Source: Eledone cirrhosa (Eukaryota). Taken from it: DNA of 64,000 nucleotides. Position 1 is the stretch's first letter. The number at the start of each line of letters is the position of its first letter. The notes under the pieces were generated by a model. It was not told where the DNA came from, searched no databases, and saw nothing but the letters and a program-made list of their open reading frames with translations. The stretch spans positions 53,940,001-54,004,000 of the forward strand of contig OZ024746.1 in NCBI GenBank assembly GCA_964016885.1, written 5' to 3'. Position numbers and translations under genes: made by a program. Below are positions 24,095 to 29,880 of this stretch, piece by piece.

Positions 24095-24470
24095 TAAATG
24101 TAAGTATGCATGTATACGTACATACATATATGTATACAGACGTACAGTAGCATGCACATATATATATATATATATACATATATATATACATATGCATACA
24201 GGTACACATACATATATGCACGTATCAGTTTAGCGGCGCTTATTATAACGTCGCTTTGTTCGTTTGTAAACAAACTGAACAGCCTGAATTTATGCCATAC
24301 GGTGTTAAGGCAACCACGTCACCTTTTTGTTCAACACTGACACAGGAACGATGTACTAGTTTCAAGCTTGTTAGCTATCATCAGCACCGTTTACCCATCT
24401 GCCAGATAGTTGAACGTTCGAAAGTATATACTTTCCTTATGAAAATTAACGGCTGAGCAGCCTAATTTGC
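24095..24470 (-). mobile_element. Inverted 5' arm of the 474-bp retrozyme array (contains HHR at 24349-24389, minus)
   Basis: Reverse complement of unit sequence beginning at ...CTTACATTTA, i.e. 58 nt upstream of the array's 3' end. Confidence 0.9.
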
Positions 24471-24471
24471 A

Positions 24472-27400
24472 AAACTGATACGTGCATATATGTATGTGTA
24501 CCTGTATGCATATGTATGTATATATGTATATATATATATATATATGTGCATGCTACTGTACGTCTGTATACATATGTGTATGTACGTATACATGCATACT
24601 TACATTTAAGTAAGTGCCATACTAAGAGTGAGAAATGAAATTTCGTTTTCATTTTGTTTCAATTTATCGTTTTCGGTATGCCTGACCGATTTAACTCACT
24701 CAATATGCAAATTAGGCTGCTCAGCCGTTAATTTTCATAAGGAAAGTATATACTTTCGAACGTTCAACTATCTGGCAGATGGGTAAACGGTGCTGATGAT
24801 AGCTAACAAGCTTGAAACTAGTACATCGTTCCTGTGTCAGTGTTGAACAAAAAGGTGACGTGGTTGCCTTAACACCGTATGGCATAAATTCAGGCTGTTC
24901 AGTTTGTTTACAAACGAACAAAGCGACGTTATAATAAGCGCCGCTAAACTGATACGTGCATATATGTATGTGTACCTGTATGCATATGTATATATATATG
25001 TATATATATATATATATATGTGCATGCTACTGTACGTCTGTATACATATATGTATGTACGTATACATGCATACTTACATTTAAGTAAGTGCCATACTAAG
25101 AGTGAGAAATGAAATTTCGTTTTCATTTTGTTTCAATTTATCGTTTTCGGTATGCCTGACCGATTTAACTCACTCAATATGCAAATTAGGCTGCTCAGCC
25201 GTTAATTTTCATAAGGAAAGTATATACTTTCGAACGTTCAACTATCTGGCAGATGGGTAAACGGTGCTGATGATAGCTAACAAGCTTGAAACTAGTACAT
25301 CGTTCCTGTGTCAGTGTTGAACAAAAAGGTGACGTGGTTGCCTTAACACCGTATGGCATAAATTCAGGCTGTTCAGTTTGTTTACAAACGAACAAAGCGA
25401 CGTTATAATAAGCGCCGCTAAACTGATACGTGCATATATGTATGTGTACCTGTATGCATATGTATATATATATGTATATATATATATATATATGTGCATG
25501 CTACTGTACGTCTGTATACATATATGTATGTACGTATACATGCATACTTACATTTAAGTAAGTGCCATACTAAGAGTGAGAAATGAAATTTCGTTTTCAT
25601 TTTGTTTCAATTTATCGTTTTCGGTATGCCTGACCGATTTAACTCACTCAATATGCAAATTAGGCTGCTCAGCCGTTAATTTTCATAAGGAAAGTATATA
25701 CTTTCGAACGTTCAACTATCTGGCAGATGGGTAAACGGTGCTGATGATAGCTAACAAGCTTGAAACTAGTACATCGTTCCTGTGTCAGTGTTGAACAAAA
25801 AGGTGACGTGGTTGCCTTAACACCGTATGGCATAAATTCAGGCTGTTCAGTTTGTTTACAAACGAACAAAGCGACGTTATAATAAGCGCCGCTAAACTGA
25901 TACGTGCATATATGTATGTGTACCTGTATGCATATGTATGTATATATGTATATATATATATATATATGTGCATGCTACTGTACGTCTGTATACATATGTG
26001 TATGTACGTATACATGCATACTTACATTTAAGTAAGTGCCATACTAAGAGTGAGAAATGAAATTTCGTTTTCATTTTGTTTCAATTTATCGTTTTCGGTA
26101 TGCCTGACCGATTTAACTCACTCAATATGCAAATTAGGCTGCTCAGCCGTTAATTTTCATAAGGAAAGTATATACTTTCGAACGTTCAACTATCTGGCAG
26201 ATGGGTAAACGGTGCTGATGATAGCTAACAAGCTTGAAACTAGTACATCGTTCCTGTGTCAGTGTTGAACAAAAAGGTGACGTGGTTGCCTTAACACCGT
26301 ATGGCATAAATTCAGGCTGTTCAGTTTGTTTACAAACGAACAAAGCGACGTTATAATAAGCGCCGCTAAACTGATACGTGCATATATGTATGTGTACCTG
26401 TATGCATATGTATATATATATGTATATATATATATATATATGTGCATGCTACTGTACGTCTGTATACATATATGTATGTACGTATACATGCATACTTACA
26501 TTTAAGTAAGTGCCATACTAAGAGTGAGAAATGAAATTTCGTTTTCATTTTGTTTCAATTTATCGTTTTCGGTATGCCTGACCGATTTAACTCACTCAAT
26601 ATGCAAATTAGGCTGCTCAGCCGTTAATTTTCATAAGGAAAGTATATACTTTCGAACGTTCAACTATCTGGCAGATGGGTAAACGGTGCTGATGATAGCT
26701 AACAAGCTTGAAACTAGTACATCGTTCCTGTGTCAGTGTTGAACAAAAAGGTGACGTGGTTGCCTTAACACCGTATGGCATAAATTCAGGCTGTTCAGTT
26801 TGTTTACAAACGAACAAAGCGACGTTATAATAAGCGCCGCTAAACTGATACGTGCATATATGTATGTGTACCTGTATGCATATGTATGTATATATGTATA
26901 TATATATATATATATGTGCATGCTACTGTACGTCTGTATACATATGTGTATGTACGTATACATGCATACTTACATTTAAGTAAGTGCCATACTAAGAGTG
27001 AGAAATGAAATTTCGTTTTCATTTTGTTTCAATTTATCGTTTTCGGTATGCCTGACCGATTTAACTCACTCAATATGCAAATTAGGCTGCTCAGCCGTTA
27101 ATTTTCATAAGGAAAGTATATACTTTCGAACGTTCAACTATCTGGCAGATGGGTAAACGGTGCTGATGATAGCTAACAAGCTTGAAACTAGTACATCGTT
27201 CCTGTGTCAGTGTTGAACAAAAAGGTGACGTGGTTGCCTTAACACCGTATGGCATAAATTCAGGCTGTTCAGTTTGTTTACAAACGAACAAAGCGACGTT
27301 ATAATAAGCGCCGCTAAACTGATACGTGCATATATGTATGTGTACCTGTATGCATATGTATATATATATGTATATATATATATATATATGTGCATGCTAC

Positions 27401-29880
27401 TGTACGTCTGTATACATATATGTATGTACGTATACATGCATACTTACATTTAAGTAAGTGCCATACTAAGAGTGAGAAATGAAATTTCGTTTTCATTTTG
27501 TTTCAATTTATCGTTTTCGGTATGCCTGACCGATTTAACTCACTCAATATGCAAATTAGGCTGCTCAGCCGTTAATTTTCATAAGGAAAGTATATACTTT
27601 CGAACGTTCAACTATCTGGCAGATGGGTAAACGGTGCTGATGATAGCTAACAAGCTTGAAACTAGTACATCGTTCCTGTGTCAGTGTTGAACAAAAAGGT
27701 GACGTGGTTGCCTTAACACCGTATGGCATAAATTCAGGCTGTTCAGTTTGTTTACAAACGAACAAAGCGACGTTATAATAAGCGCCGCTAAACTGATACG
27801 TGCATATATGTATGTGTACCTGTATGCATATGTATATATATATGTATATATATATATATATATGTGCATGCTACTGTACGTCTGTATACATATATGTATG
27901 TACGTATACATGCATACTTACATTTAAGTAAGTGCCATACTAAGAGTGAGAAATGAAATTTCGTTTTCATTTTGTTTCAATTTATCGTTTTCGGTATGCC
28001 TGACCGATTTAACTCACTCAATATGCAAATTAGGCTGCTCAGCCGTTAATTTTCATAAGGAAAGTATATACTTTCGAACGTTCAACTATCTGGCAGATGG
28101 GTAAACGGTGCTGATGATAGCTAACAAGCTTGAAACTAGTACATCGTTCCTGTGTCAGTGTTGAACAAAAAGGTGACGTGGTTGCCTTAACACCGTATGG
28201 CATAAATTCAGGCTGTTCAGTTTGTTTACAAACGAACAAAGCGACGTTATAATAAGCGCCGCTAAACTGATACGTGCATATATGTATGTGTACCTGTATG
28301 CATATGTATGTATATATGTATATATATATATATATATGTGCATGCTACTGTACGTCTGTATACATATGTGTATGTACGTATACATGCATACTTACATTTA
28401 AGTAAGTGCCATACTAAGAGTGAGAAATGAAATTTCGTTTTCATTTTGTTTCAATTTATCGTTTTCGGTATGCCTGACCGATTTAACTCACTCAATATGC
28501 AAATTAGGCTGCTCAGCCGTTAATTTTCATAAGGAAAGTATATACTTTCGAACGTTCAACTATCTGGCAGATGGGTAAACGGTGCTGATGATAGCTAACA
28601 AGCTTGAAACTAGTACATCGTTCCTGTGTCAGTGTTGAACAAAAAGGTGACGTGGTTGCCTTAACACCGTATGGCATAAATTCAGGCTGTTCAGTTTGTT
28701 TACAAACGAACAAAGCGACGTTATAATAAGCGCCGCTAAACTGATACGTGCATATATGTATGTGTACCTGTATGCATATGTATATATATATGTATATATA
28801 TATATATATATGTGCATGCTACTGTACGTCTGTATACATATATGTATGTACGTATACATGCATACTTACATTTAAGTAAGTGCCATACTAAGAGTGAGAA
28901 ATGAAATTTCGTTTTCATTTTGTTTCAATTTATCGTTTTCGGTATGCCTGACCGATTTAACTCACTCAATATGCAAATTAGGCTGCTCAGCCGTTAATTT
29001 TCATAAGGAAAGTATATACTTTCGAACGTTCAACTATCTGGCAGATGGGTAAACGGTGCTGATGATAGCTAACAAGCTTGAAACTAGTACATCGTTCCTG
29101 TGTCAGTGTTGAACAAAAAGGTGACGTGGTTGCCTTAACACCGTATGGCATAAATTCAGGCTGTTCAGTTTGTTTACAAACGAACAAAGCGACGTTATAA
29201 TAAGCGCCGCTAAACTGATACGTGCATATATGTATGTGTACCTGTATGCATATGTATGTATATATGTATATATATATATATATATGTGCATGCTACTGTA
29301 CGTCTGTATACATATGTGTATGTACGTATACATGCATACTTACATTTAAGTAAGTGCCATACTAAGAGTGAGAAATGAAATTTCGTTTTCATTTTGTTTC
29401 AATTTATCGTTTTCGGTATGCCTGACCGATTTAACTCACTCAATATGCAAATTAGGCTGCTCAGCCGTTAATTTTCATAAGGAAAGTATATACTTTCGAA
29501 CGTTCAACTATCTGGCAGATGGGTAAACGGTGCTGATGATAGCTAACAAGCTTGAAACTAGTACATCGTTCCTGTGTCAGTGTTGAACAAAAAGGTGACG
29601 TGGTTGCCTTAACACCGTATGGCATAAATTCAGGCTGTTCAGTTTGTTTACAAACGAACAAAGCGACGTTATAATAAGCGCCGCTAAACTGATACGTGCA
29701 TATATGTATGTGTACCTGTATGCATATGTATATATATATGTATATATATATATATATATGTGCATGCTACTGTACGTCTGTATACATATATGTATGTACG
29801 TATACATGCATACTTACATTTAAGTAAGTGCCATACTAAGAGTGAGAAATGAAATTTCGTTTTCATTTTGTTTCAATTTA
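24472..29880 (+). repeat. 11.4 x 474-bp tandem array, non-coding, one hammerhead per unit (non-LTR retrozyme-like)
   Basis: Exact 474-bp period, also visible in the ORF track. Units differ only at two linked positions as far as can be seen by eye. Confidence 0.95.
24788..24828 (+). ncRNA. Minimal type I hammerhead ribozyme; identical copies every 474 bp up to 29528-29568 (11 copies)
   Basis: cggtg-CTGATGA-t-agct(aaca)agct-t-GAAA-cta-GTA^-catcg. Helix III is the palindrome ACTAGT. Confidence 0.9.

Follow-up and report, generated by a model that had tools for sequence, protein, structure and literature searches.

A two-ended, PLE-type insertion footprint on a non-coding hammerhead repeat points to probable retrozyme mobilisation in trans

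The tandem array examined here, within a 64,000-nt stretch of the Eledone cirrhosa genome (hereafter, the window), belongs to a non-LTR retrozyme, a family of non-coding hammerhead repeats scattered through the genome. A Penelope-like element (PLE) that targets (TA)n is likely to mobilise the family in trans through its RT/GIY-YIG protein, since the retrozyme copies sampled end at two fixed sites, S and T, inverted copies pair one of each, a sister family (D) and the coding PLEs of the same genome behave alike, and the predicted RNA structure around the tail is conserved. The repeat is dispersed at high copy number, with 10,364 exact ribozyme matches genome-wide. The features of the window are collected in Table 1.

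Table 1. Features of the retrozyme array and of related insertions in the window
Feature	Position	Strand	Remarks
Broken Hydra-type PLE, family H1	3793-7283	+	Inverted arm 3792-4224; tail ~78 nt; comparison element
Older sibling insertion	19081-20740		Short arm on minus strand, with T end; three units on forward arm; right end decayed into TA
Divergent subfamily B copy	22720-23376	-	Hammerhead at 23041; ~76-80% to unit; S end around 22796
(TA)n target, left flank	24036-24094		Further tract at 23511-23983
Inverted arm	24095-24471	-	377 nt, one hammerhead, ends at tail-less site S; unit positions 357 to 259
Forward arm	24472-29880	+	11.4 tandem 474-nt units, starts at unit position 120
Type I hammerhead motif, first full unit	24786-24830	+	7-bp stem I, 2-bp stem III, palindromic loop; recurs every 474 nt
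Predicted three-way-junction module around tail and downstream hairpin (one unit shown)	25100-25200	+	Structure prediction
Tail, 58 nt, between sites S and T	29823-29880	+	Outside arm coverage
(TA)n target, right flank	29881-30142
Older sibling insertion	32033-35104		Minus arm ending at S; forward arm is tail only (35043-35104)
5'-truncated PLE, family N2	35158-37068	-	GIY-YIG end on both arms; tail ~58 nt at left; comparison element
5'-truncated PLE, family N1	50293-51820	-	GIY-YIG end

The original prediction placed the array between (TA)n tracts, with an inverted arm at 24095-24470 and an unpaired 58-nt tail, and both flanks and the tail are as described. The arm, one base longer than predicted, agrees exactly in reverse complement with 7 of the 11 corresponding unit stretches, among them 29446-29822. 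The left tract is split at 23984-24035 by a 52-nt piece of another element, beyond which lies a second (TA)n tract (23511-23983). Tandem-repeat analysis of the window returned a period of 474 with 11.4 copies and 99% matches, and the forward arm is built from two unit variants (G A A G A G A A G A G A), with a five-unit higher-order pattern. The unit is low in GC, non-coding and without an LTR/PBS/PPT layout, and the list of window ORFs contains none of at least 120 aa within the array. The hammerhead core with its 7-bp stem I, 2-bp stem III and palindromic loop is present in all 11 forward units and in the inverted arm. Cleavage of the first full unit is predicted after 24823, and unit positions are numbered from the ribozyme cut site. 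The Rfam match to the hammerhead unit is weak (Hammerhead_HH9, E 0.03, below the gathering score). Over the whole window the Rfam matches listed were TA-driven and mostly to microRNA families, and were discarded. The circular unit RNA is predicted to be highly self-paired (z -7.8).

Of the two older siblings, the copy expected at 32031-35104 carries the same tail and an outer end of the same kind, 3 nt earlier, but its inner points (388|255) are not those of the array (357|120), so the near-identity of breakpoints claimed for it applies to the outer end alone. The copy at 19083 shares the tail as claimed, with the qualification that this tail lies on the minus strand, on the short arm, and that the copy fades into TA at its other end. 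The arm of the former copy is broken by a LINE piece (32082-34708) that matches the LINE at 37741-40480 at 97.5%, has a 5-nt repeat on either side and inserted into the retrozyme arm later.

Ends were tallied by hand over 52 clusters, obtained from the first 100 of the exact ribozyme matches, all on one contig. The 3' ends fall at two fixed sites about 59 nt apart, the tail-less S and the tailed T, in 81 of 89 cases, and at neither in 8. Inverted copies number 33, in 32 of the 52 clusters; every one of the 26 with both ends readable combines one S with one T, and the 7 with one end unreadable stand outside this count. The tail is carried by exactly one arm, which may be either (26/26 unit copies and 13/13 copies of family D). 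A (TA)n tract lies directly outside S in 35/35 scored cases and outside T in 44/45, compared with a background of 18% in randomly placed flank windows. The inner 5' ends are scattered and show no departure from a uniform distribution (KS p 0.28 and 0.07). The arms of inverted copies overlap in sequence, both arms and the units of a single insertion carry common locus-specific variants, and older arms are diverged or hold later insertions. Arms longer than one unit continue into another unit, up to about 15 units at loci L082/L194, and three- and two-unit patterns are seen at L194 and L190, respectively. The copies sampled elsewhere thus have fixed rather than random ends, frequent head-to-head inversions and (TA)n flanks, in keeping with the prediction.

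The sister family D, 60% identical to the unit family, has one S and one T in all 13 inverted copies scored, at its own positions 227-232 and 299-301, which are homologous to the sites of the unit. Its tail is about 70 nt and its arms reach 28 or more units; the unit counts of the two non-coding families are about 10,000 and 7,600. Subfamilies C and D were rejected as autonomous parents, both being non-coding in the loci seen. The T end falls within a single-stranded linker of the predicted tail module, a region that also contains an octamer-like 8-mer (25179-25186). Judged from 11 related, partly decayed copies, 5 of the 21 predicted pairs are changed on both sides, and the covariation score was reached by 0 of 500 shuffles. 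The tail region of family D is predicted to fold alike (z -5.2), and on these models four subfamilies retain a covarying RNA structure in the tail region.

The pairing of S and T is also found in coding PLEs of the same genome, in 18/18 inverted copies of families N1/N2 and 44/45 of family H1. Intact ORFs of 1217 aa (N1) and 784 aa (H1) are present. The H1 frame contains a C-terminal GIY-YIG domain, a CxCX5C linker, a DKT motif and an RWK-like motif, and the family targets (TA)n; by comparison with the description in Craig 2021 (section 11), these motifs, rather than a tree, place H1 in the Hydra clade. The N1 frame has a C-terminal GIY-YIG, a CX2-5CxxC linker and two cysteines in the core, and by motifs alone N1/N2 would fit either Neptune or Nematis. 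Atlas look-alikes carry PF26215 and GIY-YIG in the case of H1 and are of RT/GIY-YIG type in the case of N1/N2; Pfam and PDB searches with the N1 and H1 proteins gave no match. The two supposedly coding PLEs of the window (3793-7283 and 35158-37068) do display the predicted arm, tail and (TA)n and fall in two different PLE groups, but neither is intact: the coding region of the first changes frame near 4950, and the second retains only the GIY-YIG end, on both arms.

Leading candidates as the source of the mobilising protein are N1 and H1, two young families with intact copies. The idea of a PLE-retrozyme parasite pair holds as far as the PLE-type footprint goes, but no homology to the sampled PLE families and no specific pair emerged. 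Local alignment of the unit with every sampled PLE end gave z of at most 2.1, and a near-palindrome common to the unit and H1 was not significant. Comparison of the unit tail with tails of autonomous PLEs, a proposed check, yielded no link in sequence or structure among N1, N2, H1 and 30 further GIY-YIG loci; the only match of the tail-module covariance model in this set was a neighbouring retrozyme copy, and no 3'-end similarity to an autonomous partner appeared there. Tail length as a partner marker (58 nt, as in N1 and N2) is weakened by the longer tail of family D. Direct retrozyme joins were seen for 6/26 H1 neighbours and 9/17 of N1/N2 (one ambiguous, one locus unreadable through an N gap), which corresponds to 1.4 and 1.5 joins per 10,000 arms (44,158 and 58,990 arms, respectively). 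Joins between H1 and N elements also occur (3 among the first 30 examined out of 139, of which one was judged by eye). Chimeric junctions were therefore rejected as a partner marker, as the per-arm rate is the same with both PLE groups and the groups are joined to one another. Only 8/11 simple chimeras have S and T, and the junctions probably result from target deletion at insertion, or from later deletion.

Several other origins of the arrays were weighed. The unit could be the pLTR of an autonomous PLE outside the sample, with the arrays representing 5'-truncated or pLTR-only insertions moved in cis. The layout fits, in that the ribozyme precedes the tail by 150-260 nt, as it does in N1 and N2; the unit is joined directly to a Hydra-type ORF at two loci, L044 and L047; and in Li et al. 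2026, 24 of 57 Xenopus retrozyme families are homologous to transposable elements, mostly PLE ends. However, the join at L044 falls inside GIY-YIG and not after a stop, the 5' flanks of 25 arms have no common ORF-bearing sequence, 30 subfamily C loci have no PLE ORF upstream, and the long arms of both families run unit into unit, so that movement in cis appears improbable. A LINE reverse transcriptase of CR1 or RTE type is a less probable agent still, even though the window contains an open endonuclease-RT frame of 1028 aa whose copies likewise end beside TA tracts. Twin priming of the L1 type, which would be invoked for the inversions, leaves a single fixed 3' end and non-overlapping arms, whereas the retrozyme has two fixed ends, a tail that can be on either arm and arms that overlap. 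When the window was compared with itself, the unit moreover showed no resemblance to the LINE 3' end, and the LINE piece at 32082-34708 entered its arm later. LINEs are left open as partners in Cervera 2020.

Spread as a satellite at the DNA level, without an RT step, by unequal exchange, rolling-circle DNA or hairpin-driven rearrangement in (TA)n, would accommodate the higher-order patterns in the window and at L194/L190 as local duplication, and local amplification is proposed by Li et al. Such spread does not predict that fixed ends of two kinds are common to coding PLEs, that 5' truncation is random or that head-to-head polarity is strict. In both arms at L082/L194 a marked unit is followed by a short-linker unit, and therefore the template was mixed before insertion; we regard an origin purely at the DNA level as very improbable. 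Least credible of all is the proposal that assembly or a fold-back produced the inverted arm artefactually. The arm is 100% identical to most units, and the junction 24471/24472 is bridged by no listed short-read contig in four runs, which is evidence neither way; but the arm stops at S while the other continues to T, the flanks are not mirrored, inversion recurs across the clusters with diverged or interrupted older arms, and contigs of run X1, perhaps the sample that was assembled, show loose ends of both types.

For PLEs, Frangieh 2024 (PMC11167929) showed in vitro that the tail spans the interval between two internal sites at which the RT starts and that both strands of AT-rich DNA are cut; a dimer was predicted, and the tail was termed unique to PLEs. 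Mobilisation of the retrozyme by a PLE could proceed in a similar way. Unit RNA would be transcribed as a multimer, and paired hammerheads would cut and circularise it. The protein of the PLE, probably acting as a dimer, would bind the structured tail module and cut both strands of a (TA)n tract; 2-4 nt of TA/AT microhomology would then serve to prime one cDNA at S and a second one at T. The two cDNAs would stop at random points and be joined 5' to 5', and long arms may reflect copying of a multimeric or circular template. The claim that the whole 5.8-kb structure is a single PLE-made retro-insertion agrees with its S and T ends in (TA)n, but the five-unit pattern allows some later growth; even with a PLE acting in trans, growth of part of the array after insertion is conceivable, if rather unlikely. 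More tentatively, the repeat may be a viroid-like hammerhead RNA lineage, not descended from the PLE that it exploits, which recruits the PLE RT through its own conserved RNA structure, with rolling-circle copying from circular monomers and multimers by a PLE dimer obliged to fire once at each of the two sites. If true, this would explain both the integration of animal retrozymes and the origin of the tandem, inverted and tailed structure of PLEs. The rule of one S and one T extends to two coding PLE groups that are unrelated to each other, and it limits how the unsolved step of PLE integration can work, pointing to coupled, asymmetric priming from both cut strands. The same genome holds intact candidate enzymes and a 474-nt RNA whose start sites are mapped and whose recognition structure is predicted, so that both questions could be tested in the existing in vitro PLE assay.

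The retrozyme resembles EN+ PLEs (Poseidon PAc, Frangieh 2024; Neptune, Hydra and Naiad, Craig 2021; Adineta Penelopes, Arkhipova 2013) in its 5' truncation, partial tandems, head-to-head arm, tail at one end, AT-rich or (TA)n target and ribozyme upstream of the tail. It differs in the lack of an ORF, in arms of many units and in a tail of 58-70 nt rather than 30-40 nt; the tail is described as optional or often one-sided in those papers, whereas here it occupies exactly one arm in all 26 unit copies and 13 family D copies scored. Non-autonomous Chlamys PLEs of Chlamydomonas (MRC1, Chlamys-N4; Craig 2021; PMC9977147) are likewise non-coding, multicopy head-to-tail insertions in a microsatellite target. 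They are PLE-mobilised and generally resemble their autonomous partner at the 3' end, and Chlamys elements mostly lack hammerheads. Every unit of the retrozyme carries a hammerhead, and similarity to a partner was not detected.

PLE mobilisation of retrozymes has been proposed by Cervera and de la Pena 2020 (PMC7229834) and by Li, Clavereau and Pollet (bioRxiv 10.64898/2026.07.22.740005). As in the metazoan non-LTR retrozymes that they describe, the units are non-coding tandem repeats of a few hundred nt with one type I hammerhead each, low GC and a highly self-paired predicted circle, in a genome that also holds PLEs. The 474-nt unit is slightly above the range of about 150-450 nt given in the former and inside the 51-972 nt of the latter. 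Homology to the pLTR of a sampled PLE was not found for it. Fixed ends, tail, inversions and (TA)n targeting of retrozymes are not described in the available text of either, and no report of a PLE-type S and T footprint on retrozymes was found in the literature searched. There, entry of animal retrozymes into new sites is proposed rather than shown, and the case for PLEs is argued from co-occurrence, common ribozymes and pLTR homology. The present case offers instead a direct footprint; one that the literature terms unique to PLEs, on two non-coding families, is more direct evidence for PLE mobilisation of retrozymes.

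The array of the 474-nt non-coding hammerhead repeat (a non-LTR retrozyme, family A) is a real feature of the 3.0 Gb assembly and no artefact. It is adjoined by (TA)n at both ends, and its units and inverted arm are listed in the table below. Each unit carries a type I hammerhead motif whose stem I has 7 bp and whose stem III, of 2 bp, closes in a palindromic loop; Rfam returned for it no more than a weak match to HH9. Hammerheads of this form are described as depending on a neighbouring copy for cleavage (Cervera 2014). The original prediction was that the array bears a Penelope insertion signature and was mobilised in trans by the machinery of Penelope-like elements (PLEs). 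Sibling copies described as sharing its tail do so (19081 and 32033–35104), and the nearly common breakpoint described for the latter is shared at the outer end, but the inner inversion points differ. Two coding PLEs of the window do have the array-like layout ascribed to them, although both are broken or truncated and they belong to different groups.

Positions of features in the window
Position	Feature	Remarks
24095-24471	Inverted arm of the array	Matches unit positions 357 to 259, numbered from the predicted ribozyme cut, base for base in reverse complement
24472-29880	474-nt unit	11.4 copies
29823-29880	Array tail	Final 58 nt; outside the stretch covered by the inverted arm
17791-18035	Very short H1-type insertion	Arm and tail
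48996-49488	Very short H1-type insertion	Arm and tail
50025-50210	Very short H1-type insertion	Arm and tail
52308-52370	Very short H1-type insertion	Arm and tail
58786-59012	Very short H1-type insertion	Arm and tail
3022-3450	End of other hammerhead-bearing, (TA)n-flanked element	Coding parent not identified
52614-52865	End of other hammerhead-bearing, (TA)n-flanked element	Coding parent not identified
49756	End of other hammerhead-bearing, (TA)n-flanked element	Coding parent not identified
37194-40280	Open 1028-aa endonuclease-RT (LINE) frame	Flanked by PLE end fragments

A 36-nt ribozyme sequence was found at 10,364 exact matches in the assembly. The ends were surveyed in all 52 clusters from the 100 matches listed, every one on contig C1, with tallies entered by hand from individual end calls. 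As expected from the proposed Penelope signature, the tabulated copies have fixed 3′ ends, inversions and (TA)n flanks. Inverted elements number 33 and occur in 32 clusters; a further 23 elements have a single arm. Among the 89 3′ ends, 36 fall at a tail-less site (S, unit 253–259) and 45 at a tailed site (T, unit 310–318), the tail being the stretch between; the other eight lie elsewhere, are eroded into the TA-rich linker of the unit or are replaced by another element. Where both ends of an inverted element could be read, 26 of 26 show one S and one T end, in either order; seven more inverted elements have an unreadable end. Directly outside the ends, (TA)n was scored at 35/35 S and 44/45 T sites, versus 18% of random flank windows. 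The arms are arranged head-to-head; two flagged tail-to-tail cases were rejected as single elements, being separate neighbours. The distribution of inner 5′ ends of the arms shows no departure from uniformity (KS p 0.28, 0.07). In most inverted copies the inner junctions overlap by 0–3 nt. In three copies (35043, L071 and L072) the T arm halts at S. Contigs from sequencing run X1, which may be the sample that was assembled, contain loose ends of both kinds, S and T, that continue into TA. One locus, L188, contains more than one inversion, and the same marked array end occurs in two small contigs (C787 and C547) that may represent a single locus assembled twice.

A search with a tail-region covariance model picked up a sister family, D, with 60% identity across the unit and 7,647 pattern matches in the assembly at up to 2 mismatches. 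In 20 fetched stretches of this family, S and T ends occur at homologous sites in 13/13 inverted copies with both ends readable, one T end being read across an internal deletion; two more have an unreadable end and five are single-arm or run off the stretch. The same rule holds at fetched loci of coding PLEs, for 18/18 inverted pairs in families N1 and N2 and 44/45 in the Hydra-type family H1.

PLE copies can be inverted and 5′-truncated, with a tail that is often one-sided (Craig 2021; Arkhipova 2013). In a Poseidon PLE, reverse transcription begins at two internal sites with the tail as the stretch between, AT-rich DNA is cleaved on both strands, and a protein dimer is predicted (Frangieh 2024). 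The strict S+T pairing is compatible with coupled priming. We infer that one cut strand would prime at S and the other at T, and that both cDNAs would halt at random points and then join 5′ to 5′; a T arm halting at S looks as though one RNA had served both primers. The array is a non-LTR retrozyme with a PLE integration footprint and was probably mobilised in trans.

With respect to the template, locus-specific variants are common to the units and both arms of single insertions (e.g. L035, L079 and L032), and several loci, out of about 19, carry a rare linker variant in the majority of their units, which fits a single monomer having been copied, as it would be from a circle. Templates were not uniform in every case: both arms at L082/L194 contain a marked unit with a short-linker unit after it, two units alternate at L190, and the array in the window has a five-unit period. 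Such mixed order could possibly arise from a multimeric circle, a linear multimer or later local duplication. Folded as a circle, the unit is predicted to be far more stable than shuffles (z −7.8, 30 shuffles), owing partly to its TA-rich linker.

The consensus fold predicted from 11 sequences of subfamilies A–C has an outer stem around two hairpins, plus a further hairpin, and would place T in the linker between the two enclosed hairpins. Both sides are changed in 5 of the 21 counted pairs, a kind of count that relatedness of the sequences tends to inflate according to the tool's warning; the covariation score was reached by 0/500 shuffles, and pairing was found in 95% of cells against 28–50% in slid controls. 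Independent folding of family D predicted the same shape. When A, B and C are folded as single sequences, S falls within the loop of a hairpin, a placement not retained in the consensus fold. Just past the tail module lies an octamer-type 8-mer (window 25179–25186, and in each unit), kept in A–D, which also falls within a predicted stem. In newt satellite 2, another hammerhead repeat, an octamer is used in an snRNA-type promoter.

Intact ORFs of young PLEs are present for N1 (1217 aa, copies 98–99% alike) and H1 (784 aa); N2 is older (95–96%), and a GIY-YIG search of the assembly returned several further families. The sampled PLE ends showed no likeness to the unit by alignment or by covariance model. 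Direct head-to-head H1–retrozyme joins at first resembled a partner marker but did not pass their controls and were rejected as such. Divergent Hydra-type pieces were observed at L033, L034, L035, L036, L044, L047, L052, L061 and L070, that is at 9/65 family A loci, compared with 0/84 N1, H1, N2 and large comparison loci and 2/30 loci joining both groups (H1-N), as raw counts with flank length not equalised; these could reflect shared age or target, or hint at a partner. Within its N-terminal part, the N1 ORF (L145:5139–8789) carries a long low-complexity insert rich in Asn, similar to N-rich inserts described from Adineta Penelopes (Arkhipova 2013).

An H1 arm motif has 44,158 matches in the assembly. 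The short H1-type insertions have 5′ ends clustering at a single point, located about 60 nt before S; they may be a derivative of MITE type, or the point may mark where copying stalls or a cut is made. A 2.6-kb copy of the LINE with the 1028-aa frame lies inside a sibling retrozyme arm, and L034:5700–7601 holds another tandem repeat, which is unrelated and whose units, about 310 nt long, each contain a hammerhead-like core (7 cores). A share of 0.39–1.00 of the unit's words is also present in sequencing runs filed under 15 organism codes and in one wastewater metagenome. For three other-organism runs, assembly gave six low-depth contigs from one and none from the other two; the shared words could come from relatives, contamination or diet.

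PLEs were regarded as strong candidates for retrozyme mobilisation, with LINEs left open (Cervera 2020), and retrozymes have been proposed to derive from PLE pLTRs and to hijack PLE enzymes (Li, Clavereau and Pollet 2026). In the main text of the latter, 'tail' is absent and 'inverted' occurs in a reference only; our search of the literature available without subscription found, in paper listings and passages, no description of a PLE footprint on retrozymes. Non-autonomous Chlamys PLEs have been reported (Craig 2021; PMC9977147). PLE-mobilised retrozymes are thus not a new idea. What appears to be unreported is evidence at the level of insertions, together with the strict S+T rule and a partner-independent RNA module.
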